Source: Bdellovibrionales bacterium
Lineage (GTDB): Bacteria > Bdellovibrionota > UBA1018 > CAIMNF01
Assembly: GCA_947462765.1 (NCBI GenBank)
Contig: CANHQK010000007.1
Location: 1,438 to 65,437, forward strand
Length of the DNA: 64,000 nucleotides
Direction: 5' to 3'
In this document: positions 11,353 through 37,245 of the stretch, piece by piece
How positions within the stretch are numbered: the stretch's first letter is position 1
Layout of the letters: each line of letters starts with the position of its first letter
The notes under the pieces: model-generated
Told to the model about the DNA's origin: nothing
Database searches by the model: none
Seen by the model: only the letters and a program-made list of their open reading frames with translations
Translations under genes and position numbers: made by a program

Positions 11353-11387
11353 GGGCCCACCCATCGTATCGGAATCCCGGGAAGGGG

Positions 11388-21305: not shown

Positions 21306-22235
21306 ATGCACATGAATGCGTTGATCGAGTACCGCACATTGGTTCTGTATGCCGGCTACGCCTTGATCGGTTTAGCGACCTTCATCCTCGGGAACATGTT
21401 GCTTTCCGAGCAGGAGAACATGAATGCGAGCGAGAATCTCCGTCAACTCGACGGTAAGAAAACCTCGAACGACTTCGTACGGCTCACTCGCCCGTTTTTC
21501 TCGCAATACATCGTCCCGGCGATCCGGAGCAAATCTAGATTCGACGAAGCGAGGCTGAAATACAGGCGTAAAATCATTAGTGGCGGGCTGAAGGATGAAC
21601 TCACTGCCGACGAATTCATCGCGTTCAAGATCATGCTCGTGGTGGTATTTCCCATCGTGGGAGGGTTTGTTCGTGCGCTCGACCTCGCTGACATTCCGAA
21701 CTATGTGATGATCTTCCTCCCCGTCATCGGTTACTTCTATCCTGACTTCTGGGTGAACGGCCGGATCAAGGTCCGTCATGCCCAAGTGATCAAGTCCATG
21801 CCCTTCGTCGTGGATCTGCTCGCCTTGTCTACCGAAGCGGGCCTGGACTTCATCGGAGCGATCCAGAAAGTGGTCGAAAAAGCCGCACCCGGTCCATTCA
21901 TCGATGAGATGGAACAGGTTCTGAAGGAGATCAAGGTCGGGTCATCCCGCTCGGAGGCTCTTCGGGAGATGGCCTTCCGGATCAATCTCCAGGAGGTCAA
22001 TTCTTTTGTCGCGGTCCTCTGTTCGGCCGATCAAATGGGGGCATCGATCGGCAAAGTTCTTCGCCAGCAGTCGGATCAGATCCGGACCCTTCGTTTCGTG
22101 CGAGCCGAGAAGGCGGGTGCGCTTGCCACACAAAAACTGATGTTTCCGACCTTTGCACTGATTCTACCTGCGATTCTCATCATGATGCTGATGCCGTTCG
22201 GACTGCAGGCCTACATGAACGGGGGAGGCGGCTGA
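21306..22235 (+). CDS. Tad/Flp pilus assembly inner-membrane platform protein (TadB/TadC-like, T2SS-F domain)
   Basis: GspF-like domain (FVVDLLALSTEAGLDFIGAIQKV...SRSEALREMA) with TM segments at both ends. Confidence 0.75.
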   Translation: MHMNALIEYRTLVLYAGYALIGLATFILGNMLLSEQENMNASENLRQLDGKKTSNDFVRLTRPFFSQYIVPAIRSKSRFDEARLKYRRKIISGGLKDELTADEFIAFKIMLVVVFPIVGGFVRALDLADIPNYVMIFLPVIGYFYPDFWVNGRIKVRHAQVIKSMPFVVDLLALSTEAGLDFIGAIQKVVEKAAPGPFIDEMEQVLKEIKVGSSRSEALREMAFRINLQEVNSFVAVLCSADQMGASIGKVLRQQSDQIRTLRFVRAEKAGALATQKLMFPTFALILPAILIMMLMPFGLQAYMNGGGG

Positions 22236-22600
22236 TGCGCGTACTCCGGATCGTCCGCCAGCAAGATGGAGCGGTGGTGGCCCACCGGGCCCGCATCGCG
22301 GACGGTTTCTTGAGTCGTTTGAGAGGTCTGATCGGAACCACGAGGTTTACCGAGGGGGAAGGTTTGCTCTTTCCCCGGTGTAACAGCATTCATATGTGGA
22401 TGATGAGCATCCCGATCGATGCTGTTTTTCTGGGTAAGTGTGAGGCGGGTTGGAGAGTGCTCAGTACTCATCCGAGTCTGAAGCCCTGGAAGATCCTTCC
22501 AGTGGGTAATGGTAAAGCGGAGGATGTTCTCGAACTTCCTGTCGGGACCGTCGAGCGCCTCAAGATCCGTCACGGGGAGGTGTTATGCATCGTCTCGTGA
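22235..22600 (+). CDS. DUF192 (COG1430) family protein
   Basis: CNSIHMWMMSIPIDAVFL...VLELPVGT matches the DUF192 core (SIHTFGM.F.IDv.FLd). Overlaps the upstream stop. Confidence 0.55.
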   Translation: MRVLRIVRQQDGAVVAHRARIADGFLSRLRGLIGTTRFTEGEGLLFPRCNSIHMWMMSIPIDAVFLGKCEAGWRVLSTHPSLKPWKILPVGNGKAEDVLELPVGTVERLKIRHGEVLCIVS

Positions 22601-24252
22601 TTGTTGCAGGTCCGAACCGCGGGAGTGCATTCTCTCTGATCGAGGGAGAGAACACGATCGGCCGCCAGATGGATAACCATATCGTGCTCACCTCTTCGAA
22701 AGTATCCAAGCGGCACTGCGCGCTACTGGTTACCACGCAAGAGGTCATTTTGAGAGATGAGGGAAGCACCAACGGGACTTTTGTCAATGGTGCACTCTCC
22801 CGACGGCACACCATGAAACCCGGTGACAAGCTCGGTGTCGGAGAGTTTGTTCTGGAACTCGTACGTTCCGGGGTGCCCGCCCAGGTCTCGACGGGGCAGA
22901 CCGGATCGTTTTCCAATCCGCTCGACAGCGGGATGCTCCCTTCGAATCCGTTTGATCTCTCCGGTGGAGCCGGAGCCCTGGCTCTGCCGGGAGCCGCAAC
23001 CGCTCCGCTGAGATCCGGACCGGCTAACCTTCAGGAAGCCACTTTCGATGATCTCGCTCCGAAACAGGAGCTGCCCGAGGACCTTCCTGGCAAGCTCAAA
23101 TTCCTGTTCGAGGGCAAGATCATGCCCACATTCTATGGCATGCTGATGAAGAGTGAGCTCGGCAATATCCTCGCCGGCTTGCTCGGTATTGCCCTTTTGA
23201 TCTCTGTGTTCGCGTCGGTGATGCCCATGGAGAACATGGCCGAGCAGGGGATCCAGCGGGAAGCCAAAATACGCGGAACCGTCCTGGCTCGCGAGGTAGC
23301 GGATCGTTACGCTCCCCATTTCGTCAACCATACCGAATCACAAATCGATTTTTCGCTCCTCACGCAAGAGGAGAGCATCAAGATCGTCGCGCTCCTCAAC
23401 ATGGACCTCAACATCGTGGCTCCCCAGGCCCGTCTGGGGCAGTTGTTTTCAGTCGGTGGGGAGGCTGCCTTCGCCCGGAAAATGGTCAAGGAATACCGCG
23501 AGGGCCGTGAAAAAGGCGGCGGTATGTTTCTCGATGCCCACACCTATGTGCACATCGAGCCCATCAAGGCAGCGGATCCCCGGACCTACGCCAATGAGGT
23601 GGTCGCCCTTGCGCTCGTATCCATCGATTTTTCGCGCAATATGGTCACCGCTGGAGGCCTCGAAATCGCCTATGGCTCGGCCATCATTTATACGGCCATC
23701 ATCGGCCTGATTTTTTACTTCATCCTGTTGCGTCTGATCCAGAAGCCCTACGAGGTCATGAACGATGACCTCGACCAGGTGTTGAGGGGAGAGATTCCGA
23801 GGGTCACCAAGGAGTTCAAGCTGGGTCATCTCGAGAAGCTCTGGGACAACGTCAATGCCGCTGTTCAGAGGATGGGAAAGGGAGACTCCTCTGTAGAGGA
23901 GGGGACCGTGCTTTGGGATCAGGAATTCGCACCCTGGTTGGCGGTCGCGGAAGCCGGTCAAATGGGACTGATCGGCTTTGACGCCAATCTGATCATGGTG
24001 ACCGTGAACCCGTTTTTTTCGGATTTAAGTGGCATCCGAGGTGATTCGGTGGGGCAGACCCTGTCCCAAGTCGGTGATCAAGCCATGATTTCACTGGTGA
24101 CCGAGATGAAAAGCGGTGCGGAGCGCTCCGGTAGCCGGACCACTTCCGATAAGTTCGAGTTTCAGGGGATCGACTATTCGGTCGTCGCCACCCTGGTCGG
24201 TCCGAAAGACCAGGCCGGGATCGCCCTCCTGTTCAGAAAGAAGGAGTCCTGA
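22585..24252 (+). CDS. FHA-domain membrane protein (N-terminal FHA, Pro/Ala linker, TM helix, extracytoplasmic domain)
   Basis: FHA motif GRQMDNHIVL...SKRHCALL...LRDEGSTNGTFVNG. TM segment GLLGIALLISVFASV. Confidence 0.8.
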   Translation: MHRLVIVAGPNRGSAFSLIEGENTIGRQMDNHIVLTSSKVSKRHCALLVTTQEVILRDEGSTNGTFVNGALSRRHTMKPGDKLGVGEFVLELVRSGVPAQVSTGQTGSFSNPLDSGMLPSNPFDLSGGAGALALPGAATAPLRSGPANLQEATFDDLAPKQELPEDLPGKLKFLFEGKIMPTFYGMLMKSELGNILAGLLGIALLISVFASVMPMENMAEQGIQREAKIRGTVLAREVADRYAPHFVNHTESQIDFSLLTQEESIKIVALLNMDLNIVAPQARLGQLFSVGGEAAFARKMVKEYREGREKGGGMFLDAHTYVHIEPIKAADPRTYANEVVALALVSIDFSRNMVTAGGLEIAYGSAIIYTAIIGLIFYFILLRLIQKPYEVMNDDLDQVLRGEIPRVTKEFKLGHLEKLWDNVNAAVQRMGKGDSSVEEGTVLWDQEFAPWLAVAEAGQMGLIGFDANLIMVTVNPFFSDLSGIRGDSVGQTLSQVGDQAMISLVTEMKSGAERSGSRTTSDKFEFQGIDYSVVATLVGPKDQAGIALLFRKKES

Positions 24253-24255
24253 TCC

Positions 24256-25311
24256 ATGATCCGCGACAAGGTCTTCCGATTCAATAAAGCCGAGGTTCCC
24301 CGCCAAGCGGGCGAATTCGCGCGCTTGCGAGTCGTCAAGGGCCCGGATCTCGGAGCGACCTTCGTGGTGAAGGAGTCCTCGTTCACGGTAGGGCGCGGCG
24401 AGACGGTCGACATCATCCTGGCCGACCCGAAAGCCTCGCGGAGTCATGCTCGGATTGAGTTCACCCACGAGGGGTGGTTGGTGAGCGACCTGGGTTCGGC
24501 AAACGGCGTCTTTTTCTCGGGAGAGTTCGTCCGGAAGTTCAAATTGAAGAGCGGGGACCACTTCACCATAGGTGACAGCGTCCTCGAGTTCCTGATGAGT
24601 CGCGAGTCGGATCGCGCTCTCATGGCCCCTGTCAAAGAGAATCAAGATATCGAGCGTCTTGATGTGGCCCTCGCGCAACAGAAGGTCAGGGTCAAGAACA
24701 TTTCGAAGCCGGTTGCCGGGGTTCAGAAAAAAAAGCAGGAAAAGCGTAGTCCGTTGCTTCTCGTGGTGATCGGTCTCGGTGTCGCGGGCTACCTTTATCC
24801 TGATGAGGCGAGGCCACTCCTTGAGGATTTCGGTCTCGGCATGGTGGCGGATTTTCTTCCGGAAACTCCCAAGTCGAAATCCGGTAAGGCGAAAAAAGCA
24901 GGCAAGGATGGCGAGAAAAAAGATGCCGAGGTCCGCGAGGTCGCCTCATTGGCCCCTTCTGAAGTGTCCCGTGAGGTCGAAAAAACCGCCGACCAACACT
25001 TCGCGCTCGGCTTCAGGGAGTATACGGCTGGAAACTACGTCCGCGCCAAAGAAGCCTTCGAACTCGCCCTTCAGGTCAACCCTCACCATGGCCGCGCAAG
25101 GTATTACCTGATGCATTCCGAGCACGAGAACCGCGAGGAGATTCGGAAGATCATCGAGTCGGCGCGAATCGCCCGGGAATTCGGCAGGACCAGAAAGGCC
25201 ATCGGTCTTTATGAAACAGCCATCCGGCATCTTTATTTCGACAGGGAAAACCCGTTGTATATCGAATGTGAGGCAGCCTTGAAAGAGCTGAAGAAGGTGG
25301 AGTCTCAATGA
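24256..25311 (+). CDS. FHA-domain membrane protein with C-terminal TPR-like region
   Basis: FHA motif GRGETVDIIL...SRSHARIEF...VSDLGSANGVFFSG. TM segment LLLVVIGLGVAGYLY. Lys-rich segment and a helical TPR-like tail. Confidence 0.8.
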   Translation: MIRDKVFRFNKAEVPRQAGEFARLRVVKGPDLGATFVVKESSFTVGRGETVDIILADPKASRSHARIEFTHEGWLVSDLGSANGVFFSGEFVRKFKLKSGDHFTIGDSVLEFLMSRESDRALMAPVKENQDIERLDVALAQQKVRVKNISKPVAGVQKKKQEKRSPLLLVVIGLGVAGYLYPDEARPLLEDFGLGMVADFLPETPKSKSGKAKKAGKDGEKKDAEVREVASLAPSEVSREVEKTADQHFALGFREYTAGNYVRAKEAFELALQVNPHHGRARYYLMHSEHENREEIRKIIESARIAREFGRTRKAIGLYETAIRHLYFDRENPLYIECEAALKELKKVESQ

Positions 25312-27563
25312 GCGGGTCTTTACGTTTGGAAGTATTTCAAAATGGCGAGCTCCTCCGGACCATCCCTTTCGACGGACAGGAGCTCTGGTTCGGGCGTGAC
25401 GAGGATTGCTCAGTCCGGCTGGATGATCGAGCGATTTCGCGTAAGCACGCGCTGATCCGTTCCACATCGAACGGGATTGAATTCGAGAAGAAATCGAAAT
25501 TCGGCATGGTCCGACTGAACGGCAAGGAGACCGATCATGCCCTGATCCAGGGGGGCGAACGTCTGGAGCTCGGCTCCTTTGAGATCCGTTTTGTCAAAGA
25601 GGGTGCCGTTCTTACGAAGCAAGTCCAGGAGGTTCAGACAACAGCTGCGGTGGCGATGACTGAGCCTGCTCTCACCGAGCCGGTGATCACCGAACCGGAA
25701 GCCGAAGAAGCTTCCGCTCCCGCCGAAAACGATCCTTTCGCAACCCCTGCCTCACAAGAGGATGGATTTCAAGCCGAGACGGCGGATCCGTTCCAGACGC
25801 CTGAGAGTGAGCCAGTCTCCTCGGGCGCCACCCGTAGTTTTGATTTCGCCGAAGTCGATCAGGATGGCGCCACCCGCGTCTTTAAGAGTCCCTCGAGGAC
25901 CATGAAGCCGATCCTCGAGTTCGGCGATGGAACGGCCAGTATGGGCTTTTACGAGATCGCCGATCCCGAGATCGCGATTGGTCGATCCCAAAAGTGCCAT
26001 GTGGTGCTCGAAGACAAGCGCTCTTCCCGCAAGCATGCGTTGATCATTGAGCGAGGGAAAAAGTATTTCCTGAAGGACCTCGGCTCGGCCAACGGTACCC
26101 TGCTCAATGGAGAGCGGGTGGATGAGCAGGAGCTACACAGTGGAGATGTCATCCGGATCGGTGACACCCAGTTCACCTTCAAGATGGTCCAAAGCGACTA
26201 TGAGCAGAAAAAAGCGGAGTTTTTCCAGGTTCCTCAAGAGCCCGAGCCCCCCGTGATGGCGGATGGATTTCCAGCTGCAGTTTCGCAGGCGCCTGTAGCT
26301 ACCATGTCTTCTCCGGCCATGGGAGGGATGTTCCCGGCATATTCCCAGGAAGTGTCGCATTCCGGGCCTGAAATTGCCGAGCCCATCGCAACCCCGGACT
26401 TCACCGTTCCCGAGGAGGAGACCCAAAGCATTCTCGGGAAACTCATCCAGCGGTACCGGATGCTCAATACCAAGCAGCAGGTGATCTACGGCCTGGTGGT
26501 TTTGGCGGGGATTTATTTTATTTTTGACGAGCCTCCCCCTGCGGTCAAAGCGGTAGACCCGGTGGCGGAGCAAAAAAAGGCTCAGAAGAAAGCCGAGAAA
26601 AAGCCAGGGGGTGGAGTCACCTACGAGATGTTGACCAAGGACCAGAAGGACTATGTCGATGCCCAGTATGATCTCGCCTTCGAACATTACAAGAATCGGG
26701 ATTATGATAAATCCCTTTTCGAGCTCGACAAGATTTTCAAGATCGTTCAGGAGCACAAGCGGGCGCGTGAAATTGAAACCTATGCCCGGGAGGCCAAGAG
26801 GAGGCTGGAAGCGCAGGAAGAGGACCGGAAGCGGAAGGAGCAGGAGCGCCAGGCCCGCCTCAAACTCGAAGAGCTACTGAGCCGTTCTGGAAGTCTGATG
26901 GACGAGGGTCGATACAAAGAGGCGGAGGAATTGTTCCCAGAAATTGAGATTCTCGAGCCCGAGAACGCGGCGGTATCGGCATGGAGGAAAAAGATCCTCG
27001 AAGAATCGGAGAAAAAGAAAGCCGAAGAGGAGATCCGGCAACGGCTCGGGGCCATCCTTGCCAAAGCCAAGGTAGACGCGGAAACCGCCGAGGGTCTTTT
27101 CAAGGAAAAGCGCTATGTGGATGCACTCGAAATCCTGGATGAGGTGGTCGAGCGTCAGGATCTGGACCCGAAATTCGTCAAGTCGATTGAGGGCAGGATC
27201 AAGGATATCGAGAAAGTCATGGCATCCGAACGCGATCCCCATATCGAAAACGGCAAGCGTCTTGAGGCAGATGGAAAGCTGGGAGAGGCGCATCGTGAAT
27301 ATAAAATGGCGATTTCCATCGATCCATCCGACAGCGAAGGTCCTGCCGGAATCAAGAGGATCCAAGGACAATTGAATTCGATGGCCAAGGCGATCTATTC
27401 TGACGGAGTGATCGCCGAGGGTTTCGGGGATTACGACGTCGCCGAAAAGAAGTACAGAGAGGTCATCGAAACGGTGCCCAGTGATAACTCTTATCACGTC
27501 AAAGCCAAGGCGAGGCTGAAGGTGTTCTCAACCCTGCGCAAGGTGCAGGAGGGCGGACGATGA
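25308..27563 (+). CDS. Tandem-FHA membrane protein with coiled-coil/TPR C-terminus
   Basis: Two FHA domains (GRDEDCSVRL..SRKHALI and GRSQKCHVVL..SRKHALI..DLGSANGTLLNG). TM segment VIYGLVVLAGIYFIF. Long Glu/Lys coiled coil. Start overlaps the previous stop. Confidence 0.8.
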   Translation: MSGSLRLEVFQNGELLRTIPFDGQELWFGRDEDCSVRLDDRAISRKHALIRSTSNGIEFEKKSKFGMVRLNGKETDHALIQGGERLELGSFEIRFVKEGAVLTKQVQEVQTTAAVAMTEPALTEPVITEPEAEEASAPAENDPFATPASQEDGFQAETADPFQTPESEPVSSGATRSFDFAEVDQDGATRVFKSPSRTMKPILEFGDGTASMGFYEIADPEIAIGRSQKCHVVLEDKRSSRKHALIIERGKKYFLKDLGSANGTLLNGERVDEQELHSGDVIRIGDTQFTFKMVQSDYEQKKAEFFQVPQEPEPPVMADGFPAAVSQAPVATMSSPAMGGMFPAYSQEVSHSGPEIAEPIATPDFTVPEEETQSILGKLIQRYRMLNTKQQVIYGLVVLAGIYFIFDEPPPAVKAVDPVAEQKKAQKKAEKKPGGGVTYEMLTKDQKDYVDAQYDLAFEHYKNRDYDKSLFELDKIFKIVQEHKRAREIETYAREAKRRLEAQEEDRKRKEQERQARLKLEELLSRSGSLMDEGRYKEAEELFPEIEILEPENAAVSAWRKKILEESEKKKAEEEIRQRLGAILAKAKVDAETAEGLFKEKRYVDALEILDEVVERQDLDPKFVKSIEGRIKDIEKVMASERDPHIENGKRLEADGKLGEAHREYKMAISIDPSDSEGPAGIKRIQGQLNSMAKAIYSDGVIAEGFGDYDVAEKKYREVIETVPSDNSYHVKAKARLKVFSTLRKVQEGGR

Positions 27564-28288
27564 CAGCTGGAAGCCGTTCGCGGATTCCGCTCAGCTTTGC
27601 CGAGGGGTTTCAGACTCAGGGGGATACGCCTGTACAAGAGGACTACTTCGAGTTGAATCCTGAGAGAGGAATTTACATCTTGGCTGACGGGTTCGGCGGA
27701 TCCCTCGGTGCACGAGCGGCTGAAACCGTGGTGAAATCCGTTCGTCAGTACCTCGAGCATGAAGCAGGGGACCTCGATGCAACCATGCCTTTTGAGCTTC
27801 GTCCCTATTATTCCCTGGCCGGCAACGTGCTGTTCAATGCGGTCGCATTTGCAAACCAGAAAATCATGGAGATGAATCGGGGTCGGAACTGGCAGGACTC
27901 GGGGGGTGCTAGTTTGGTGGCAGGCTACCTCGAAGGCCGACTGCTGTCGGTGGCTCGCGTGGGCGCTTGTCGCTTGAGGCTCAAGCGGGGCGGCCAGGTG
28001 AAAGAGCTGATTCCCGCGAGGAGTCTTCTCAGGCAAACCGATCCGATGAGTGAGGAAGGTCCGGGCGATTCCGTGCCACTGATGAGTTTCGGCACATCCC
28101 GGTCGCTCGAGCCCGAGATGACAGAACTCGAGCTCAGGTCCGGAGATCAAGTGTTCTTTGAGACCGGTGGTGTACGTCAAGCCTGGCGTCAAAAGATCCA
28201 CGCCCTCAATGATCCTCATGGACTCAAAGGGCTTCTGGATTCCCTTGAATCCCCGGGGAATGCGTCGATGATTTGGCTCGGCTTTTAA
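27560..28288 (+). CDS. PP2C-family (PPM) Ser/Thr protein phosphatase
   Basis: Metal-binding motif GIYILADGFGGSLGARAAE. Overlaps the previous stop (ATGA). Confidence 0.8.
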   Translation: MTAGSRSRIPLSFAEGFQTQGDTPVQEDYFELNPERGIYILADGFGGSLGARAAETVVKSVRQYLEHEAGDLDATMPFELRPYYSLAGNVLFNAVAFANQKIMEMNRGRNWQDSGGASLVAGYLEGRLLSVARVGACRLRLKRGGQVKELIPARSLLRQTDPMSEEGPGDSVPLMSFGTSRSLEPEMTELELRSGDQVFFETGGVRQAWRQKIHALNDPHGLKGLLDSLESPGNASMIWLGF

Positions 28289-28309: not shown

Positions 28310-28519
28310 ATGTACACAGGGGGTCTCTTGAGCCAGAAAAGGAAGTCCGGACAAGCAGTCGTCGAATACATCGTGCTCCTGACCATGGTTGTCGGGATCA
28401 TGGTCGCTTTTTTGCGGGCAGTGAACGGTTCTTTCAATAAAGCGGTGCCGAGGATGGGGGGAGCCATCGAGCGGCAATTGCGTACCGGGGCCGCTTCTGC
28501 AGGAGTGTGGAGAAAGTGA
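28310..28519 (+). CDS. Flp-family type IVb prepilin
   Basis: Short leader, then G|QAVVEYIVLLTMVVGIMVA (Glu+5/Tyr+6 after the predicted cleavage). 69 aa. Confidence 0.6.
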   Translation: MYTGGLLSQKRKSGQAVVEYIVLLTMVVGIMVAFLRAVNGSFNKAVPRMGGAIERQLRTGAASAGVWRK

Positions 28520-28794
28520 AGAGGAGCGACCTGGGGCAGGCCGTGGTCGAGTACATCATCCTGCTAGCAATCCTGGTCGGGCTTTACGGAGCGATGATTC
28601 GTCAGCTGGGTGAACGGGAAGTGTTCAAAAAGATGCAAAAGCCCCTGACGAAGGACTTTGCTGCGACTTACCGTTACGGACATCCGAAGGCGAAAGGAAT
28701 GGACGACGGGGGACCTGTCAACATTCCGACGGTTCAGAGCAAAGGCTACGATGACCAGAACTTCAGGATTTTTTACAATCCGACGATAGAGTGA
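28507..28794 (+). CDS. Flp-like prepilin, second copy
   Basis: G|QAVVEYIILLAILVGLYGAM leader/hydrophobic segment. 95 aa. Confidence 0.6.
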   Translation: MEKVKRSDLGQAVVEYIILLAILVGLYGAMIRQLGEREVFKKMQKPLTKDFAATYRYGHPKAKGMDDGGPVNIPTVQSKGYDDQNFRIFYNPTIE

Positions 28795-29336
28795 GTGAGA
28801 TGAAGCGCGAAAACATTCAGAAAAACAAGGAGGGACAGGCGGTGATCGAGTTCATTCTCGGACTCTTGATCGTCATCTCTTTTTTCTTTTTCTATGTCAG
28901 ATTGAGTGCTGTTTTCGCGATCTCGAATTACATCCAGTATGCCACCTTCATGTCCGCGAGAACGCTCGCCTCCTCTGCAAAAGACCAAATGGTCCAGGAG
29001 GAGAACGCCAAACAGGTCCTCCAGTCGATGGTGAGTGGGAAGTTCAAAGGCCTGATCAAGCCCAAGTCTGGAGACGGGTTGTTTGTCGGAGCAGGGAACT
29101 ATTTCAACAGTCTCGGGCCCATTGAAGAGTGGAATCATGGAGCCTCTTATCAGTTTTCAGCCAAACTTTCATTCTATCCTTTCAGTGCGAACGACCAAGC
29201 GGTTCTGTTGGACCTGACCAGTGAGAGCTGGATGCCCCGCGACCGGAGCGAGGATGAGTGTGAGCGTGCCAAATCGAAGATCGAGGCTATGACCGGAGTT
29301 CAGAATGTCAAAGTGGAGTGGGACAATGGATGCTGA
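28791..29336 (+). CDS. TadE-like pseudopilin
   Basis: G|QAVIEFILGLLIVISFFFF class-III signal plus hydrophobic N-terminus. 181 aa. Confidence 0.6.
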   Translation: MSEMKRENIQKNKEGQAVIEFILGLLIVISFFFFYVRLSAVFAISNYIQYATFMSARTLASSAKDQMVQEENAKQVLQSMVSGKFKGLIKPKSGDGLFVGAGNYFNSLGPIEEWNHGASYQFSAKLSFYPFSANDQAVLLDLTSESWMPRDRSEDECERAKSKIEAMTGVQNVKVEWDNGC

Positions 29337-29850
29337 AGAAGGTCAGAGCATTTTGGAAGTCATCCTGTTCCTGCCGTTTTTGTTCATCCTGGTGGGGCTC
29401 TTGATCCGCATGAACACTGGCATCCAGATGGCCATCAATAATGCCCGTTATGCCAGAGCCCAGCTTTTTGTTCTGACCAACAACTCTCCCGAGTATCCGC
29501 GTCTCCAGCTTAGGAACAATCGTCTCGTGAAAAACGCGCACGACATGCTGGTCGTGGGAGTGTCCGATCCTGAGGCGATTGAGGAAGCGGCCTCTGACGG
29601 GGATATGCCGGCGATTCCCCAGGTCCAATCGATTGCCAACAAGAAGGCGCGTGGGAGCAGTGAACGGGGTGAAGTTAAGTCGCGGACGGAAATCCGGATC
29701 CGTGGAACCGCAGCGATCTGCACCCAGAGCAATTCGGTGACCAAGGGTACGCCGATCGACTCGTTGCAGGTCACGGCATTGGCAAACAAACGTTGGCCGT
29801 TCGGAAAAATGGCCTGTCAGTATGACGGGTCCTGGATCGGAGATCAGTGA
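29305..29850 (+). CDS. TadE/TadF-like pseudopilin
   Basis: G|QSILEVILFLPFLFILVGLL class-III signal. 181 aa. Confidence 0.55.
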   Translation: MSKWSGTMDAEEGQSILEVILFLPFLFILVGLLIRMNTGIQMAINNARYARAQLFVLTNNSPEYPRLQLRNNRLVKNAHDMLVVGVSDPEAIEEAASDGDMPAIPQVQSIANKKARGSSERGEVKSRTEIRIRGTAAICTQSNSVTKGTPIDSLQVTALANKRWPFGKMACQYDGSWIGDQ

Positions 29851-30710
29851 TGAATAGCAGGGCGATGACATTATCGTTGGTGATGGCCGGGATTGCGGTA
29901 TTCTTCGTGATGAGTTCCGTGTCGAGCATCGAGCAGAATGCCACCATGAAGTATGGCGACGAAGTGACCGTGCTCGTGGCAAAGCAAGATATCAGGGAAA
30001 TGGGAACGATTCTCGACTCCATGGTCGAGGCGAAATCCGTGCCGAGAAACTTCGTTGAGCCGACCGCGGTCAAGTTCGACGGAAAACTCGATGTCGAGTC
30101 GCCCGAGGGTGCTAGTGCCTATTCGGTTCAGTCCAAGCGGATTGTTGGAAACGTGGCGATTGTCGCAATCAAGAAGGGCGAGCAACTGACCCTGAATAAA
30201 ATCACCGAGCCGAGCATGAGGACCGGGTTGGCGCCCCAGGTGACACCCGGGAAGCGCGCTATTGCTGTTCCGATCGATGAGTCCACCAGTGTGGCCAAGC
30301 TGGTCAAGCCAGGTGACCGTGTAGATGTGATCGCCGTGGTCCAGTCGCCGGGCGTCGGTGGTAGGGAAGTGAAAACTGCCAAGACTGTTTTCCAGGATGT
30401 CGTGATTCTTGCAGTAGGTCGGTCGATTGCGAACAATGTCGCTCGCCGCGTTGATGTCGACATGTCCGGAACCGCCAGGGTCCGCTCCCTCACCGAATAC
30501 GACGGTTATAGTTCCATCACACTAGAGCTCGACCCTGCCCAGGCCCAGTTGGTGGCAGCCATCTATACTGACAATTCCAACCGTCTTATCCTGTCGCTCC
30601 GGAATAATGACGACGCGGACCGGGTGGCCATCAGCGCTCCTTCCAGGGCAACCGATGTGTTGACGGACAGCCAGCGTTTGCCGGCAAGCAACAGTGGAGG
30701 GCTGAAGTAA
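29847..30710 (+). CDS. cpaB: Flp pilus assembly protein CpaB/RcpC (SAF domain)
   Basis: N-terminal TM segment, then SAF-like VTVLVAKQDI...GNVAIVAIKKGEQLT. Confidence 0.75.
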   Translation: MMNSRAMTLSLVMAGIAVFFVMSSVSSIEQNATMKYGDEVTVLVAKQDIREMGTILDSMVEAKSVPRNFVEPTAVKFDGKLDVESPEGASAYSVQSKRIVGNVAIVAIKKGEQLTLNKITEPSMRTGLAPQVTPGKRAIAVPIDESTSVAKLVKPGDRVDVIAVVQSPGVGGREVKTAKTVFQDVVILAVGRSIANNVARRVDVDMSGTARVRSLTEYDGYSSITLELDPAQAQLVAAIYTDNSNRLILSLRNNDDADRVAISAPSRATDVLTDSQRLPASNSGGLK

Positions 30711-30711
30711 C

Positions 30712-32406
30712 ATGCTGAATGCTTCCGTTTGTCTTCTCCTCAGTTTGCTTTCATTCCCGGTCGATGCAATCGCCCAGCAGGAAGCGGTGTCCCCCACACC
30801 GGCTGAGGGCGAAGGTGAGGAAAAAAAAGAACGGAAGCGTCGGCGGGCGCCTGAAGAAAGGGCTGCATATACGCGCTCGAGGTATTCCGCCGACAGGAGT
30901 GAGGCCGAGGCCGACCGACGAGCCTTGCTGCTGACTGCAGGGGTCGACAAAACAGTCGATCTGGAGGCCTCACTGAAGATCACCGGAGACACGAGCCAAA
31001 AAGTCCTGATCGGGAATGTCTCGGTGGTGAAAGTCCTTCCTGTGATTATCGGAGATCGGAAGCAATTGATTTTCAAACCGGAAGGGGTCGGAGAGACCAA
31101 CGTCACGATCCGGGATGATTCCGGCAATGTCAGACTCATCTTCGAGGTGATCGTCGCACAGGCCAACCAGATCCGGAACCTCGAGCGGCTACGAGAGAAT
31201 CTGAAGGAAGTCGAAGGAATCACGATCAATATCGAGGAAAAGAACATCGTGCTCCGCGGGGAGGTGCTCACCACGTCTGATTTTAGCATGGTGAACAATG
31301 AGTTGTCGGGTGATCTCTACGGAAAAGAGGTCATCAACAAGGTGAGAATGTCACCGGTTACACTCAACTTTCTTGCCAAGAGGATTGAGCAGGACATCCA
31401 GGTTTTCGCTCCCACAGTGAGGGCCTCGGTCATCAACGGTAAAATCATTCTCGAAGGCACGGTCGATAGCGAAGGCATCAAACAGCGCGCTTACAACCGA
31501 GCCTACTATTATCTGCCCATGGTCCGATTCAAAGAAAACGTCGGGTCCGATCAGAACGTGATTGAAATGGAGCAGGATAAGAAAACCTTCATTCTCCAGT
31601 CTGATATCACTGTTCAGACCCCCCCTCCAAAAAGAGAGAGCAAGCTCGTCAGGATGACCGTGTATTTCGTCGAGTTGGGCAAGGACTTTTTGAAAGCTTT
31701 CGGTTTCAAGTGGCAGCCCGGTTTCGCATCGGACCCCAGTATCAGCGTCGGGCAGACTGCGACGGGTGGAGTGGGGACCAGCGGAGGAGGGTTCACATTC
31801 AGTGGTACGCTGACGTCACTGTTTCCGACCATCAGCGCCCCGCCCTCTAATGCGTCCTATGGAAGGATCATGAAGTCTGCGACCGTCATTGTGAAGAACC
31901 GTGAGGAGGGAGAAGTCCGTGACCAGGTCCAGGTGCCTACTCAGGCCTTGGGGCAGGGTGGGACTCAGGGTAACGGACCAGCAGTTCAGGTCGGCTTCCA
32001 CATCAAGATGACGCCTTCCATTCTTGAGGGGCAGGATGTCGACGTGAACGTGGATATCGAGCAGAGCAATCAGGTGGGAAAGGGTGTGAACGGCACCCCG
32101 ATCGTGGCCACTCACAAGGTAAAGACCCGGCTCTATCTCAAGTCCGGCGAGACGGCCGCATTGACCGCTGTGAACAAACAGGACGTCGCCACTTCCTTCA
32201 ATCGGGATGACGCCGCTCCCGGAGCATTCCAGCAATCACAAGGGGGGGCCCAGACCAAGCCCCTGTTCAGTTTTCAACGGTCTAAGAACATGTCGAAGTC
32301 GAGGGGACAGTTTGTGATCTTCGTGAACCCGCAAGTGATCGACAACGCCTCAGAGGGCACAGAGGATTTGAAGAAGAATTTCCGTATGACATCGAGCACT
32401 CGCTGA
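30712..32406 (+). CDS. cpaC: Tad secretin CpaC/RcpA
   Basis: Signal peptide, BON-like N-terminal repeats, C-terminal secretin domain ending GQFVIFVNPQVID. Confidence 0.85.
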   Translation: MLNASVCLLLSLLSFPVDAIAQQEAVSPTPAEGEGEEKKERKRRRAPEERAAYTRSRYSADRSEAEADRRALLLTAGVDKTVDLEASLKITGDTSQKVLIGNVSVVKVLPVIIGDRKQLIFKPEGVGETNVTIRDDSGNVRLIFEVIVAQANQIRNLERLRENLKEVEGITINIEEKNIVLRGEVLTTSDFSMVNNELSGDLYGKEVINKVRMSPVTLNFLAKRIEQDIQVFAPTVRASVINGKIILEGTVDSEGIKQRAYNRAYYYLPMVRFKENVGSDQNVIEMEQDKKTFILQSDITVQTPPPKRESKLVRMTVYFVELGKDFLKAFGFKWQPGFASDPSISVGQTATGGVGTSGGGFTFSGTLTSLFPTISAPPSNASYGRIMKSATVIVKNREEGEVRDQVQVPTQALGQGGTQGNGPAVQVGFHIKMTPSILEGQDVDVNVDIEQSNQVGKGVNGTPIVATHKVKTRLYLKSGETAALTAVNKQDVATSFNRDDAAPGAFQQSQGGAQTKPLFSFQRSKNMSKSRGQFVIFVNPQVIDNASEGTEDLKKNFRMTSSTR

Positions 32407-32424: not shown

Positions 32425-34578
32425 ATGGGACACATCATCGCAGTGGTGGGAGGAAAAGGAGGGGTCGGGAAAAGTGTTTTCGCCGCGAACCTCGCGATCG
32501 CCTATCAGATGAACTTCAAGCAGCGTTCCTTGATTCTCGATCTCGACTTCCAGAGTCTCGGTGATCAGAACATCATTCTCGGATTGAATCCCCCGAAGAC
32601 AATCGTGGATGTCAGCAAGGCCCAGGTCGGCACCTGGGATCCGAAGGCCATGACTCCTTTCCTTGCCAATTCACCGCAGGGCTTCAGCTTCATCGGTGCG
32701 CCCCGGGAAGCTGCGCTTGCCAAGGACATCGATCTGGATGGACTCGGAAAGTTTCTCAAAGCCGCAGTGGGTGTTTTTCCGTGGGTGGTGATTGATTGCG
32801 GCAACGGAACAGAACCCCATGCCCTGAAGGCCATGGAGCAGGCGAGTCTGATTTTCGTCGTGACCACTCCGGACGTGATCGTTCTCAACCAGACGCGAAG
32901 GATTCTCGGCAAGGTCCAGGAGCTTCTTTTTCCACAAGAAATGGTACAGGTGGTGGTGAACCGCTATTCACCTAACAATGTGATCAATCCCCAGATGATC
33001 CAGAAGAGCATCAATAAGGCACCCTATTTTGCCATTCCCGAGGATGCAGCCACCTGTGAAGCATCGCTGACCAAGAGTCAGCCTTTCACCATGGTCAATC
33101 CGGGGGCGGCTATTTCGAGAGCTTTCTCGGATTTGGTTCGTCGGATGGATCAGAGCAAAATGCTTGATCAGCTGGCTAAACTGAACAAGCCCACCGGGGT
33201 GGCGCAGAAGGTCGGTGCGGCAGCGGTGGCGCCGACCGATGGAGGCGGAGAAAGCGGAGGCGGTTTGCTGGCCCGCTCAAAGTCGGCTCCCACGGATCCC
33301 TGGACCAACATGAAGCTCAGGATTCACAAGGCACTCATCGATGTCGTGGACATGAAGAAGATGAATGCGGATGTTGCGGATGCCAAGCAACGCGAGGTAT
33401 TGCGCGAAAAAACTCAAAAAGCGATTCTCGATGTACTGGCAAAAGAGGATGTGTCGACCCTTTGTCCGACACGTGAACTCAGAGCCCAGCTTGTAAAGGA
33501 AGTTCTCGACGAAGCCTTGGGGCTCGGACCGCTCGAGGATCTTCTCGCGGATGAAACGGTGACTGAGATCATGGTCAATGCTCGGGACCAGATCTACGTG
33601 GAACAAGGCGGAAAGCCTGGCTTATCCAAAACAACTTTTTCGAGTGAGCAGCAGATGATGAATGTGATCGAGCGGATCGTCACGCCGCTCGGCAGACGGG
33701 TCGATGAAAAGACACCGTATGTGGATGCCCGACTTGCGGATGGCTCGCGGGTTCACGTGATCATCCCTCCGCTAGCGCTCAGGGGCCCCACCATCACAAT
33801 CCGAAAATTTCCCAAGAAAAGAATCGTGTCTGCGGACTTGGTGAAGTTCGGTTCGATGACACAGGAGATCGCGGATTTTCTGCGGGCTTGCGTCGAAGCC
33901 AAACTGAATATCGTGGTTTCGGGCGGAACGGGATCCGGTAAAACCACTTTGCTCAATGTTTTATCCAACTTCATTCCAGCGACCGAGCGGATCATCACCG
34001 TCGAGGATGCAGCCGAACTCCAGCTCGGGCAGGAGCACGTGGTCCGGCTCGAGACCCGTCCCAAAAACATCGAGGGCGAGGGTGAGGTATCCATCAGGGA
34101 TCTGATCAAGTGTTGTCTCCGGATGCGGCCTGACCGGATTGTGGTCGGGGAGTGTCGGGGTGGCGAAGCCCTCGACATGTTGCAGGCTATGAACACGGGT
34201 CACTCCGGCTCGTTGACCACGGTGCACGCCAACAATCCCAGGGAGTGTATCGGACGTCTTGAAACGCTGGTGATGATGGCCGGGATGGGACTTCCCCTCA
34301 AGGCCATCCGGGAAACCGTGGCCAGTGCGGTCAATCTGATCATTCAGCAGTCGCGTCTGACGGATGGTTCGCGGAAGGTGACCTATGTATCGGAGGTGCT
34401 CGGGATGCAGGGCGAAACCGTTACCATCCAGGACATCTTCATCTACAAGCAGGAAGGCTTGGACAAGAACCGTAAGATTATTGGCAGGTTCGTGCCGACT
34501 GGTTTCATTCCTAAATTCGTCGAAGAAATGGAAGCAAAAGGCATGAAAATCTCACGGGGACTTTTCGCGGTCAAATAA
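32425..34578 (+). CDS. Fused CpaE/TadZ-like MinD-type ATPase domain plus CpaF/TadA secretion ATPase
   Basis: N-terminal deviant Walker A AVVGGKGGVGKS (ParA/MinD/CpaE type). C-terminal TadA ATPase (VSGGTGSGKTTLLNVL, Asp/His boxes). 717 aa. Confidence 0.85.
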   Translation: MGHIIAVVGGKGGVGKSVFAANLAIAYQMNFKQRSLILDLDFQSLGDQNIILGLNPPKTIVDVSKAQVGTWDPKAMTPFLANSPQGFSFIGAPREAALAKDIDLDGLGKFLKAAVGVFPWVVIDCGNGTEPHALKAMEQASLIFVVTTPDVIVLNQTRRILGKVQELLFPQEMVQVVVNRYSPNNVINPQMIQKSINKAPYFAIPEDAATCEASLTKSQPFTMVNPGAAISRAFSDLVRRMDQSKMLDQLAKLNKPTGVAQKVGAAAVAPTDGGGESGGGLLARSKSAPTDPWTNMKLRIHKALIDVVDMKKMNADVADAKQREVLREKTQKAILDVLAKEDVSTLCPTRELRAQLVKEVLDEALGLGPLEDLLADETVTEIMVNARDQIYVEQGGKPGLSKTTFSSEQQMMNVIERIVTPLGRRVDEKTPYVDARLADGSRVHVIIPPLALRGPTITIRKFPKKRIVSADLVKFGSMTQEIADFLRACVEAKLNIVVSGGTGSGKTTLLNVLSNFIPATERIITVEDAAELQLGQEHVVRLETRPKNIEGEGEVSIRDLIKCCLRMRPDRIVVGECRGGEALDMLQAMNTGHSGSLTTVHANNPRECIGRLETLVMMAGMGLPLKAIRETVASAVNLIIQQSRLTDGSRKVTYVSEVLGMQGETVTIQDIFIYKQEGLDKNRKIIGRFVPTGFIPKFVEEMEAKGMKISRGLFAVK

Positions 34579-34596: not shown

Positions 34597-35472
34597 ATGA
34601 GTTTCGCGATTCCTCACTGGCTGCTCGGCCTCGTCGTGTTTGTCTCGGCGTTGCTGGTTGCTTATCAGTTTTCAGGACGGATTCTCGACTGGGTGAGATT
34701 CCACTCGATCGGAACGCGGGACTACATCGCCGACAAGCTCAAGCTGATGATGATCGATCTTCCACTCGAGAAGATCCTCATGTACCAGGTCGGGTTTTCA
34801 TTCGGTCTTGCCGGGCTCGTGTTTCTGGCTTGTTTACCGAATTTAAAGGCTGGCGGGGCATTGGGCGCGGTTGTCGCTGTTGCTGCTTGGTTTCTCCCCA
34901 AGCCGATCGTGAATGTCCTGTATCAGAAGCGCGTGGACCGTTTTGTCGAACAAATGGTGGATGGACTCGGTCTCATGTCGAACGGGATGCGATCGGGTCT
35001 CTCGGTCTCCCAAGCGATGGGTCTGGTGGCCCAGGAAATGCCCGATCCCATCAAATCCGAGTTCGAGTTGGTGCTCAATCAGAACAAGCTCGGTTCCTCT
35101 CTTGAATCGGCCTTCATCGATCTTTCGAAACGCGTGGTGGCGGACGAGGTCGAGATGTTCGTGACTTCCGTGGTCATTCTCAAGGAGACCGGGGGAAATT
35201 TGGCGGAAACCTTCGACACCATCACCACCTTGATCCGTGAAAGGATCAAAGTCGAGAACAAGATCAAGGCCATGACGGCATCCGCCTTTTGGCAAGGGAT
35301 GATCCTACTCGGAGTACCGCCATTCATGGGATTGACGCTTTCCCAGTCCGATCCCGAACTCATGAGGCCGATGTTCGAGACCTGGCTTGGCTGGGTCGGC
35401 CTCTCTACCGTGGCAATTTTGATGTTGGTAGCTTATTTTGTAATCAAGAAGGTGACAAAAATCGATGTCTGA
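34597..35472 (+). CDS. Tad/Flp pilus assembly platform protein (TadB/TadC-like)
   Basis: T2SS-F domain with 3-4 TM helices. Confidence 0.75.
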   Translation: MSFAIPHWLLGLVVFVSALLVAYQFSGRILDWVRFHSIGTRDYIADKLKLMMIDLPLEKILMYQVGFSFGLAGLVFLACLPNLKAGGALGAVVAVAAWFLPKPIVNVLYQKRVDRFVEQMVDGLGLMSNGMRSGLSVSQAMGLVAQEMPDPIKSEFELVLNQNKLGSSLESAFIDLSKRVVADEVEMFVTSVVILKETGGNLAETFDTITTLIRERIKVENKIKAMTASAFWQGMILLGVPPFMGLTLSQSDPELMRPMFETWLGWVGLSTVAILMLVAYFVIKKVTKIDV

Positions 35473-37174
35473 GGTGAGAAGAATGACCAGAGTCTTGATC
35501 TTGTTGGGCGCATTGTTGTCGGTATCCAGTGCTTTTGCACGGGCTGATGTGAGTCTTCGGAACGGTAATTTTTTTGTTTCTTTGAGAGACATTTCTTTTC
35601 CGGGAGGGATCGAGCCCAAGATTGAACGGGTCTACAATTCAAAGTCCGACTTCCACGGGATGTTCGGTTACAGCTGGGGAACTGAGTACGAAACGCGCCT
35701 TGGCTTCGATCCTGACGGCAGTCTGTTATTGACCGAGTACGGAGGGGGCGCGAATATCCGTTTCGTTCCAAAGACCTTCACGGCCAAAGATGTTGAGGAT
35801 GGGATCAAGAGTGTGGTCGAGTCCGCACAGAAGGCGGGGATGGTCACCAGTGCGAAGGGCCTGGAAGACTATCGTAAACGTCTGAGAGAGAGTTCTGAAT
35901 TCCGAGCCAAGCAATACGCGATTTTTGTCAATAAGGGGAGTCTCCAGAGAAAAGTGATCGCGGAGAATACCCAGTTCATTTCCACTGACTATCAGTATCA
36001 GTATCTGACCCGCGTGAAGGGCGGATATACCCGGGTGATGGAAGCGGGCATGATTCAGAAATTCAACGAAGCCGGACGCTTGGTGCAGATCATGGATCGG
36101 AACCGGAACTTCGTCAATTTCTCATACGATTCGAATGGGAAGATCGCCCAGATGATCGACAACCAGAATCGCAAGATGGTTTTCTCCTACAATCAGTTCG
36201 GCCTGGTCGAGCGGATCGTGGGTGAGAGCGGAAAGAAAGCCGAATTCAAGTATTCAAAAGAGGGATTTCTGGTCTACAGCAAAGATGATGCAGGCGTGGA
36301 GAATACGTTTAAGTACACCGCCGACCAGTACCGCAATCTTTCCGAGATCGGTTATCCCAATGATCGGAATGCCAAGGGCGAACCCAAGCGGATGGTGGTC
36401 GGTTATTATGGTCCGGAGAAGAACTCCAGCGTGAAGTCGGTGGTGAATCTGGATGGTACAGTGAACGAATATGAGTACGAACTCGCGGGGAAGACCCCGG
36501 GTTATTATTCGGTCCGTGTGGTGTTGAAAGACGCCTCCGGAGCGAAACTCAATGATTCGAAGTACGAGTATTTTTACAAAACGAAGCCCAGTGGCGAGGA
36601 GTTCACTTCCCGGATGGTGACCACCGTGGACGGCGAGAAAACCGAGACCGTCTACGACGAGAAGCTCGGCTATCCCTTGAAGATCACAGCCAACGGAAAA
36701 ACCACGACCATGGAATATGACTTGAAGGGCCGGATGACCCGTAAGGTCACCCCTCTTCACACCACCACGCTCACTTATGATCCGGTGGTGGGAAAGGTGT
36801 CCAAGGTTGTCAAAAAAGTGGCGAGCGGAACCGTGATCTGGAGCGAATTTGAATACGATAAAACCACGGGGAACCTCTTGGTGGCCCGGAATAGCGATAA
36901 AAAACTGGTGAAGCTGATCTATGATTCACAGGGGCGGATCAGCGCTCTCGTGGACCAGGCGGGCCGACAGCTCACCTTCAAGTACAACGAGCTCTCCAAG
37001 CCGGTCGAAATCCGGGATGCCAAGCTCGGAACGGTGCGATTCACCTATAAAAACAGTGGCGAAGTCGACAAGGTGGACAGCAACGGGGGTGCGGGGGTGT
37101 CGGTGGAGGTGATGCGCGCATTGCAAAGCCTGATCGATATCACCGCTCCAGCTGGTGTCACCATGTCGATTTGA
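35465..37174 (+). CDS. Secreted YD-repeat (RHS-repeat) protein
   Basis: Signal peptide MTRVLILLGALLSVSSAFA. Many YD-type repeats (e.g. GRLVQIMDRNRNFVNFSYDSNGKIAQMID, KMVFSYNQFGLVERIVGESGKK, TTTMEYDLKGRMTRKV). Start overlaps the upstream platform gene. Confidence 0.7.
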   Translation: MSEVRRMTRVLILLGALLSVSSAFARADVSLRNGNFFVSLRDISFPGGIEPKIERVYNSKSDFHGMFGYSWGTEYETRLGFDPDGSLLLTEYGGGANIRFVPKTFTAKDVEDGIKSVVESAQKAGMVTSAKGLEDYRKRLRESSEFRAKQYAIFVNKGSLQRKVIAENTQFISTDYQYQYLTRVKGGYTRVMEAGMIQKFNEAGRLVQIMDRNRNFVNFSYDSNGKIAQMIDNQNRKMVFSYNQFGLVERIVGESGKKAEFKYSKEGFLVYSKDDAGVENTFKYTADQYRNLSEIGYPNDRNAKGEPKRMVVGYYGPEKNSSVKSVVNLDGTVNEYEYELAGKTPGYYSVRVVLKDASGAKLNDSKYEYFYKTKPSGEEFTSRMVTTVDGEKTETVYDEKLGYPLKITANGKTTTMEYDLKGRMTRKVTPLHTTTLTYDPVVGKVSKVVKKVASGTVIWSEFEYDKTTGNLLVARNSDKKLVKLIYDSQGRISALVDQAGRQLTFKYNELSKPVEIRDAKLGTVRFTYKNSGEVDKVDSNGGAGVSVEVMRALQSLIDITAPAGVTMSI

Positions 37175-37223: not shown

Positions 37224-37245
37224 TGTGTGGAGAGGTAAGGTTTTC

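Follow-up and report, generated by a model that had tools for sequence, protein, structure and literature searches.

In the predatory bacterium Bdellovibrio bacteriovorus, the gene for the Tad platform protein TadC (Bd0470) heads an operon, Bd0470-Bd0475, in which Bd0473 encodes an FHA protein of 386 residues, Bd0474 a protein of 674 residues with two cytoplasmic FHA domains, a transmembrane segment and an extracytoplasmic TPR domain, and Bd0475 a 'hypothetical protein' of 228 residues (PMC12034629). A transposon mutant, Bd0474::tn, attaches to prey and neither kills nor rounds it, and a copy of the gene in trans complements the defect (Duncan 2019, PMC6561027). Two-hybrid data show the periplasmic, C-terminal domain of Bd0474 binding to Bd0075, a TPR protein, and an AlphaFold-Multimer prediction pairs Bd0473 with Bd0475 at an interface predicted TM-score (ipTM) of 0.604 (PMC12034629). 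A 2026 preprint on the Bdellovibrio Tad system places FHA, TPR, PilZ and histidine-kinase genes near the tad genes, especially tadC, and describes a TadZA fusion together with a lack of TadV (10.64898/2026.07.08.737194). For the Kil system of Myxococcus xanthus, an FHA and an FHA+TPR gene (MXAN_4648, MXAN_4649) lie directly upstream of the one for the TadC orthologue KilH; killing depends on the FHA+TPR protein KilD, which is predicted to be cytoplasmic and forms clusters where prey is contacted (PMC8460266), and the authors proposed a phospho-cascade like that of the type VI secretion system (T6SS; Seef 2021, PMC8460266). FHA proteins beside Tad/Kil genes are already known. The locus analysed here lies in a 64 kb stretch of DNA (64,000 nucleotides, hereafter the window) of a Bdellovibrionales bacterium, contig CANHQK010000007.1 of assembly GCA_947462765.1, and contains three FHA genes (FHA1-FHA3) followed by a gene for a PP2C-like protein; these four genes are best explained as a conserved accessory module of a Kil-like Tad pilus operon, not as an add-on. 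The genes, and one loop of the last product that becomes important below, are as follows (positions refer to the window).

22585..24252, + strand: FHA1, 555 residues; Pfam FHA E = 1.9e-15.
24256..25311, + strand: FHA2, 351 residues; Pfam FHA E = 7.7e-16 and TPR_2 E = 1.9e-6.
25308..27563, + strand: FHA3, 751 residues; Pfam FHA E = 1.1e-30 in two stretches, and several TPR families.
27560..28288, + strand: PP2C-fold protein of 242 residues with a degenerate metal site, from profile and fold searches.
27761..27805, + strand: apparently exposed loop of the PP2C-like protein, residues 68-82, EAGDLDATMPFELRP; invariant residues and low model confidence.

A sequence-only reading of this DNA had proposed three FHA proteins, one of them with tandem FHA domains, and this is what we find: three consecutive genes on the + strand, whose products score 57.5, 58.7 and 106.3 bits (FHA1, FHA2 and FHA3) against a cut-off of 20.7 for the Pfam FHA model (PF00498) and carry four FHA domains, one each in FHA1 and FHA2 and two in FHA3. 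As the signature of a phospho-threonine (pThr) pocket we took Gly-Arg, Ser-x-x-His and Ser/Thr-x-Asn-Gly, and the residues were counted in orthologue alignments from 80 related genomes. The FHA1 pocket (G26-R27, S41/H44, S61/N63) is invariant in 59/60 sequences and that of FHA2 (G46-R47, S61/H64, S81/N83) is kept in 61-62 of 62, while the second domain of FHA3 (residues 215-292) has a canonical pocket in 70/72, with His changed to Asn in 28. The first domain of FHA3 (residues ~8-96) retains GR, SxxH and the Ser, and has a conserved Phe (F65) in place of the Asn. Overall identity among the FHA orthologues is only ~30%. Because the pockets are under such strict selection, pThr reading is probably real, and three of the four domains probably are genuine pThr readers. 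A lack of the Arg/Ser/Asn residues, which would have refuted the sequence-only reading, is thus not what the alignments show. Likewise, the best solved relatives of the FHA1 orthologue profile are GarA/OdhI, Rv1747, FhaA and EmbR, all true pThr binders.

The membrane topology had been described earlier as single-pass for all three proteins, with cytoplasmic FHA domains and extracytoplasmic TPR or coiled-coil parts. This description suits FHA2 and FHA3, but not FHA1. FHA2 has its cytoplasmic FHA domain at residues 25-112, one transmembrane segment at ~165-182 that is conserved in 62/62 orthologues, and an extracytoplasmic TPR part, the K/R-rich N-flank of the segment (KKKQEKR) indicating an N-in topology; FHA3 combines its tandem FHA domains and acidic, T-rich linkers with a transmembrane segment at ~392-408, conserved in 72/72, and an extracytoplasmic TPR/coiled-coil part of ~340 residues. 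A predicted arrangement with the FHA domains in the cytoplasm and the TPR parts outside it fits both proteins because of the single conserved segment with its K/R-rich N-flank, and the same topology has been predicted for Bd0474 of B. bacteriovorus (PMC12034629). FHA1 differs in having two transmembrane segments (residues 195-213 and 359-377), both conserved in its orthologues, which separate a cytoplasmic FHA domain (6-94), an extracytoplasmic segment of ~145 residues and a C-terminal part of 175 residues. The latter gave weak matches only (HAMP_2 at E = 0.026, PAS/LOV at E of about 0.01-0.2), and the single-sequence AlphaFold2 model of FHA1 has a model confidence (pLDDT) of 37; we tentatively regard the C-terminal part as HAMP/PAS-like, that is, sensor-like. 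A side observation concerns the FHA3 linker at residues 173-192, just before the second FHA domain, where a GATR[SV]F motif is duplicated. The Thr of the second copy, T189, is kept in 70/72 orthologues, preceded by an Asp at -3 and followed by a basic residue, Lys or Arg, at +1.

The sequence-only reading had also seen a PP2C phosphatase acting as the eraser of Thr phosphorylation. The fold part of this claim stands. Despite lacking any Pfam match, even at E = 10, the 242-residue protein is hit by the NCBIfam model Stp1_PP2C with E = 1.3e-10 (41 bits against a cut-off of 230), and a family profile from 27 homologues retrieves tPphA from the PDB with E = 2e-16, along with Stp1, PstP and PppA. 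Its AlphaFold2 model (pLDDT 90.5), used in a Foldseek search, again found tPphA (E = 1.8e-16, TM-score 0.79), and also PppA (TM-score 0.72), MspP, PstP and Stp1, so that on the basis of the profile and the model the protein is confirmed as a real PP2C-fold homologue. The active site did not bear out the claim. On mapping to tPphA, D18 corresponds to D28 and D34/G35 to D43/G44, all kept in the window protein and conserved in 76-80 of 81 sequences. Lost in the window are the phosphate-binding Arg (R13 of tPphA, here T23; Arg in 39/81 sequences), the motif-5 Asp (GDSR) of the third metal, M3 (D119, here A136), and both Asp residues of M1 (D193 of motif 8, here G203, and D231 of motif 11, here G233). 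Four of the six signature catalytic residues are thus missing, and no compensating acidic residue is conserved beside the lost positions within the clade of the window. The three metals of PP2Cs are coordinated by five conserved Asp residues, whose mutation destroys activity (PMC3375153, PMC12088040); mutation of the M3 Asp alone, as in PPM1A D146A and PPM1H D288A, yields inactive, substrate-trapping enzymes (PMC8567228). Because of the lost residues and these mutational data, we consider the window protein most likely a predicted pseudophosphatase and not an eraser.

A second conspicuous feature of this protein is the loop D71-x-x-A74-T75-x-P77-F78, in which D71, A74, T75, P77 and F78 are present in 81/81 sequences. 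The loop sits between helices 48-68 and 86-106, and the mean pLDDT of 58 for residues 71-80 of the model is consistent with an exposed, flexible element; around T75 the loop is a candidate docking or phospho-acceptor site. A resemblance of its D-L-D-A-T stretch to HAD motif I (DxDxT) was considered and rejected, since half of the orthologues have Glu for the second Asp and the stretch belongs to a loop of a PP2C fold.

One genome per species was scanned, which returned 85 relatives of the PP2C-like protein, the nearest of them 93% identical to that of the window; 80 loci were kept, from records titled Bdellovibrio, Bdellovibrionales, Bdellovibrionia, Oligoflexia or Bacteriovoracaceae, bar a few mislabelled metagenome-assembled genomes (MAGs). 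In every one of these 80 Bdellovibrionota loci that is long enough to judge, the gene order is TadC-DUF192-FHA1-FHA2-FHA3-PP2C-like-Flp-TadE-TadE-RcpC-RcpA-TadZA-TadB-RHS, and the synteny of this block holds down to ~30% identity. Judging from this uniform order, the FHA/PP2C-like module is ancestral to the Bdellovibrionota Tad operon and was not grafted onto it. The motif-5 (M3) Asp is absent from 80/80 orthologues; the motif reads G-x-C instead, and 76 of them have the Cys. An intact M1 Asp pair occurs in 46/79; a neighbour-joining tree with Fitch parsimony, which provides a rough estimate, puts the intact pair at the root and counts at least six losses, and orthologues that have lost the pair tend to have lost the Arg as well (Fisher p = 4e-7, kinship ignored). 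The window belongs to a large clade, made up of L001-L014 plus a few more loci, that has lost the entire site. Public pipelines label the Asp-retaining orthologues as phosphatases of the PrpC or SpoIIE family, and the PP2C_2 or SpoIIE model of Pfam recognizes many of them. The degeneracy of the site was uncorrelated with the His/Asn variant of FHA3 and with the presence of TadV.

The claim that the locus encodes no Ser/Thr kinase withstood three kinds of search. Hanks catalytic-loop, Gly-loop and APE motifs are absent from the six frames of the whole window, none of its ~57 open reading frames (ORFs) matches Pkinase, STAS or RsbW in Pfam, and phmmer with the kinase domains of PknB and PrkC (two queries that detect each other at E = 5e-81, a positive control) gave nothing below E = 1 in either the window or the 80 related loci, which reach ~10 kb around the PP2C-like gene. 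As the motif, Pfam and phmmer searches of the window and the phmmer search of the 80 loci were all empty, having no kinase nearby is a trait that the system has conserved, phylum-wide. The only kinase-type genes in the window encode a HisKA/HATPase_c histidine kinase and then a sigma-54 response regulator, at 52377-55500 on the + strand, 24 kb downstream. A writer of the partner-switching type (RsbW/STAS) was rejected, such domains being missing from the window.

We propose that FHA1-FHA3 form a pThr-dependent, trans-envelope accessory platform of a predatory Tad machine, with a remote kinase and with the PP2C-like protein as a non-catalytic partner, a proposal to which we give even chances of being correct. 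According to this model, the cytoplasmic FHA domains of FHA1, FHA2 and FHA3 would dock on pThr marks set by a kinase whose gene lies elsewhere in the genome, while the periplasmic TPR/coiled-coil parts of FHA2 and FHA3 and the sensor-like loop of FHA1 would contact periplasmic or outer-membrane partners, as Bd0474 does with Bd0075. The platform would in this way couple prey-contact events to the assembly or firing of the Tad machine. Candidate acceptors for the marks are conserved cytoplasmic Thr residues, namely T75 of the PP2C-like protein (81/81), T189 of FHA3 (70/72) and T408 of FHA1 (51/60). The PP2C-like protein may ancestrally have been a two-metal and probably slow enzyme. In the lineage of the window it is predicted to be incapable of efficient phosphate hydrolysis and, with its fold and M2-side residues retained, most likely is a non-catalytic FHA partner. 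As such it might serve as a natural substrate trap that binds or shields a phospho-site, or might itself be an FHA ligand via its T75 loop. Domain identities, residue states, topology signals, synteny and the lack of a local kinase are what the analysis shows. The dependence on phosphorylation, the remote kinase and the non-catalytic role of the PP2C-like protein are all features that we infer, and the link to a step after prey attachment is drawn, by synteny and not from sequence, from the B. bacteriovorus literature. A more specific version of the model, in which the PP2C-like protein is a natural substrate-trapping pseudophosphatase that caps pThr against the FHA domains or presents phospho-T75, thereby providing a hydrolysis-free switch under a remote kinase that licenses Tad firing after prey contact, is a tentative idea that we consider rather unlikely as it stands.

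Several points weigh against the platform model and should be kept in mind. Phosphorylation, kinase and binding are all predicted for these proteins from their sequences, and the candidate Thr sites were picked by conservation alone. A shared pT-x-x-F ligand motif was tried as a common denominator of these sites and given up as anything more than a lead, since the Phe at +3 is kept at T75 of the PP2C-like protein and at T408 of FHA1, but not at T189 of FHA3. Related machines possess FHA domains without known phosphorylation, as in SctD/PrgH and the predictions for GltG (PMC11761067). The mapping of active-site residues to tPphA was derived from sequence and profile (HMMER) and family alignments, not from model coordinates, and a single-metal or otherwise unconventional catalytic mechanism is possible. 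Furthermore, orthology to Bd0472-Bd0475 is a match of gene order, size and domain architecture.

The main rival to the platform model dispenses with phosphorylation altogether: the FHA proteins would be purely structural, building an inner-membrane ring or connector of the Tad machine like SctD/PrgH of the type III secretion system or GltG of the Myxococcus gliding motor, with the PP2C-like protein as a scaffold and no kinase needed. That none of the 80 loci contains a kinase is what one would then expect, and the non-canonical yet conserved pocket of the first FHA3 domain, with F65, points the same way. All three FHA proteins are also matched by Pfam Yop-YscD_cpl, and the best NCBIfam match of FHA3, at 99 bits, is GltG (NF033760; 30-99 bits for the FHA proteins against a cut-off of 650), which shares the layout of tandem FHA domains, transmembrane segment and periplasmic extension (PMC11761067). 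However, if the domains did not bind phosphopeptides, it would be difficult to account for the strict invariance of pocket Arg, Ser, His and Asn in three of them among orthologues that have diverged widely; scores for FhaB, OdhI and GarA exceed those for SctD (TIGR02500; 23-27 bits against a cut-off of 86), and that a member of the PP2C family has been kept as a partner speaks for phospho-chemistry, if only in the ancestor. On balance we regard a phospho-independent role as somewhat improbable.

Two further explanations concern the PP2C-like protein. One takes it for an active PP2C that erases the pThr marks read by the FHA proteins, as in a T6SS-like PpkA/PppA/Fha checkpoint with the kinase located elsewhere. 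The PP2C fold with PppA as a structural neighbour and the canonical FHA pockets would agree with this scenario, and it may hold in those lineages among the 46/79 orthologues with both M1 Asp residues, many of which pass the PP2C_2 or SpoIIE models. For the window protein we deem it distinctly unlikely: the equivalents of Arg13, D119, D193 and D231 are gone, nothing acidic is conserved next to the lost sites in its clade, Pfam fails to recognize it at the most permissive threshold used, and the M3 Asp, whose removal inactivates tPphA-type and human PPM enzymes (PMC3375153, PMC8567228), is found in no orthologue. The other explanation goes to the opposite extreme and regards the gene in this clade as a functionless relic decaying under relaxed selection only. 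The repeated loss of catalytic residues and the varying replacements at positions 136, 203 and 233 are of the kind expected from decay. Yet the ORF is intact and overlaps that of FHA3 by 4 bases, the proteins of L001-L014 retain 51-93% identity to that of the window, the intact and the degenerate group have 35 conserved positions in common (D28, D43-G47 and the T75 loop among them), and mean pairwise identity in the degenerate group (0.46) is close to that in the intact group (0.51). From these alignments the PP2C-like protein appears to be still under selection, and we consider decay to be very improbable. The platform model with a non-catalytic PP2C-like partner is the one retained in what follows.

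The remainder of the block, which flanks the four genes with TadC and DUF192 upstream and the pilins downstream, consists of the following genes.

21306..22235, + strand: TadC-type inner-membrane platform protein; Pfam T2SSF E = 1.1e-15, three transmembrane segments; opens the conserved block.
22235..22600, + strand: small DUF192 (COG1430) protein between tadC and FHA1; Pfam DUF192 E = 9.9e-15.
28310..28519, + strand: Flp-type prepilin, 69 residues; KSG/QAVVEY motif, then a hydrophobic helix.
28507-28794, 28791-29336 and 29305-29850, + strand: three pilin/pseudopilin genes; an N-terminal G-Q-A/S-x-x-E-[YFV] motif and a transmembrane helix in each.
29847-30710, + strand: RcpC; Pfam RcpC.
30712-32406, + strand: secretin RcpA; Pfam Secretin.
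32425-34578, + strand: TadZ-TadA fusion, 717 residues; Pfam CbiA/ParA and T2SSE, NCBIfam TadA-family and MinD.
34597-35472, + strand: TadB; Pfam T2SSF.
35465..37174, + strand: secreted YD/RHS-repeat protein; Pfam RHS_repeat and DUF6531, signal-peptide-like N-terminus.

With two T2SSF proteins (TadB and TadC), T2SSE, Secretin, RcpC and pilin motifs, the platform, ATPase, secretin, RcpC and Flp and TadE/F pilins of a Tad/Flp system are present. TadC has orthologues of 51-98% identity at the same place in the related loci, and a DUF192 gene occupies the tadC/FHA1 junction in essentially every locus that reaches that far. The Flp prepilin gene, which is overlooked by ORF lists with a long minimum length, occupies what looks like a gap behind the PP2C-like gene and runs into the beginning of the pilin ORF that follows; its counterpart in loci L001-L014 is a conserved ORF of 71-94 residues, and the order of the three pilin/pseudopilin genes is conserved in the related loci as well. 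The block is closed by the YD/RHS-repeat gene, which is likewise syntenic and Bd0109-like. Directly 3' of it, at 37225-37458 on the + strand, we noted an ORF of 77 residues with a signal peptide, and the pair of genes resembles the Bd0109/Bd0108 'host interaction locus', a regulator of pilus use in B. bacteriovorus. Since neighbouring genes overlap or lie only a few bases apart (at most 4 bases between neighbours among the FHA and PP2C-like genes), the tightly packed + strand run is most simply one operon, and the gene overlaps imply co-translation. A scan for promoter and terminator consensus sequences was uninformative, with 9 promoter-like sites versus 7.0 ± 2.8 in shuffled sequence and 30 terminator-like sites versus 18.0 ± 4.6; the latter fall within genes and carry no information on operon structure.

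A gene for a TadV/CpaA prepilin peptidase was not found in the 64 kb window by phmmer with the TadV-like ORFs of loci L022 and L024. In 47/80 loci, an ORF of this type (~190 residues, several transmembrane segments, GAGDVKLLMA motif) lies between the PP2C-like gene and the pilins, and it has no match in the clade of the window. The TadV-like ORFs are located as follows.

L022:11200-11766, L024:11246-11839 and 45 other loci: TadV-like ORFs.

Elsewhere in the window, two adjoining genes at 10144-12383 on the - strand, upstream of guaA and guaB, encode a calcineurin-like metallophosphoesterase and an N6/N4 DNA methylase; they have no relation to the Tad locus.

Papers from 2019 to 2026 repeatedly name FHA proteins as candidates for coupling prey contact to the firing of the Tad/Kil machine in Bdellovibrio and Myxococcus, without a proposed mechanism. 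What the present analysis contributes are testable parts: the FHA pockets, the PP2C-fold gene, the lack of a local kinase and three candidate Thr marks. None of the papers found on Bdellovibrio Tad and Myxococcus Kil names a phosphatase fold, phosphatase or kinase in this context. Three points appear to be new: that the operon's sixth gene, 'hypothetical' in strain HD100, encodes a PP2C fold; that its family universally lacks a third-metal site and has, as predicted from the residues, recurrently lost catalysis; and that a local kinase is absent phylum-wide. If the non-catalytic reading is true, bacteria would have in the PP2C-like protein a clear case of a PPM pseudoenzyme whose role in a nanomachine is conserved, and B. 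bacteriovorus, being genetically tractable, is suited to testing this; should it also be a substrate trap, a bacterial pseudoenzyme would be central to a secretion or pilus checkpoint.

Among known systems, the operon Bd0470-Bd0475 of B. bacteriovorus is matched in order, sizes and architectures by TadC, two further genes, FHA2, FHA3 and the PP2C-like gene of the window (PMC6561027, PMC12034629). The window TadC would be the counterpart of Bd0470 and, by position and architecture, FHA2 that of Bd0473, FHA3 that of Bd0474 and the PP2C-like protein that of Bd0475, which is small and acidic. B. bacteriovorus has the same TadZA-type Tad system as the window, and the missing TadV of the window echoes the lack of TadV reported for HD100; a difference is that the tadC block of HD100 lies apart from the main tad locus, whereas the two are contiguous in the window and in most MAGs. 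When the PP2C-like protein and TadC from a 'Bdellovibrio sp.' locus were used as queries against protein databases, the 120 matches listed were MAG proteins, none of them a B. bacteriovorus entry. The Kil system resembles the locus in being a predatory, Tad-like machine enriched in FHA proteins. It differs in that an FHA domain is fused to the ATPase KilF, whereas TadZA of the window has none, and in that no PP2C-like gene is listed in the Kil clusters.

The sequence-only reading had likened the locus to the T6SS threonine-phosphorylation checkpoint, here grafted onto a Tad system. The likeness to the pathway of PpkA, PppA and Fha1/TagH lies in a nanomachine that spans the envelope, fires on contact and is encoded together with an FHA reader and a protein of the PP2C family. 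The window differs in having no kinase in the locus, a degenerate PP2C, and three membrane-anchored FHA proteins versus a soluble one in the T6SS pathway; no T6SS family is among its Pfam matches. For the FHA domains, the models of FhaB, OdhI and GltG give better scores than that of TagH/Fha1 (TIGR03354; 30-78 bits against a cut-off of 120), all of these scores being below cut-off. Because of these TagH scores, the PP2C fold nearer to tPphA than to PppA, the ancestral synteny of the module in Bdellovibrionota and the FHA genes that flank the TadC orthologue in Myxococcus Kil, the likeness to T6SS is a functional analogy and not membership, and the idea of a graft has to be abandoned. The nearest sequence relatives of the FHA domains (FhaB/Rv0019c, FhaA, GarA) belong to the mycobacterial FhaA/FhaB-PstP-PknA/PknB system, in which membrane-anchored FHA proteins and a PP2C are co-encoded as well. 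In that system, however, the operon includes the kinases, its PP2C, PstP, works as an active enzyme with three metals, and the process served is cell-wall growth rather than a pilus.

For the PP2C-like protein, the closest parallels are PPM pseudophosphatases and traps (TAB1, PHLPP2, PPM1A D146A, PPM1H D288A), which share the PP2C fold with metal ligands missing; loss of the motif-5 Asp results in tight substrate binding without turnover (PMC8567228, PMC12002173). These cases are eukaryotic or engineered, whereas the loss seen in the window protein arose naturally in bacteria, did so repeatedly, and goes with a pilus operon. For the FHA proteins, GltG/GltJ of the Agl-Glt machinery and SctD (YscD/PrgH) offer the same overall plan of a cytoplasmic FHA domain (tandem in GltG), one transmembrane segment and a long periplasmic part that links an inner-membrane machine to the outer envelope. 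The FHA domains of SctD are not known to have a pThr pocket. The periplasmic part is TonB-C-like in GltG and ring-building in SctD, and is made of TPR in the window proteins. Finally, the HD100 partner Bd0075 has a cytoplasmic GYF-like domain, as does GltJ, so that by analogy the pairing of FHA and GYF may be a design shared among predatory machines.

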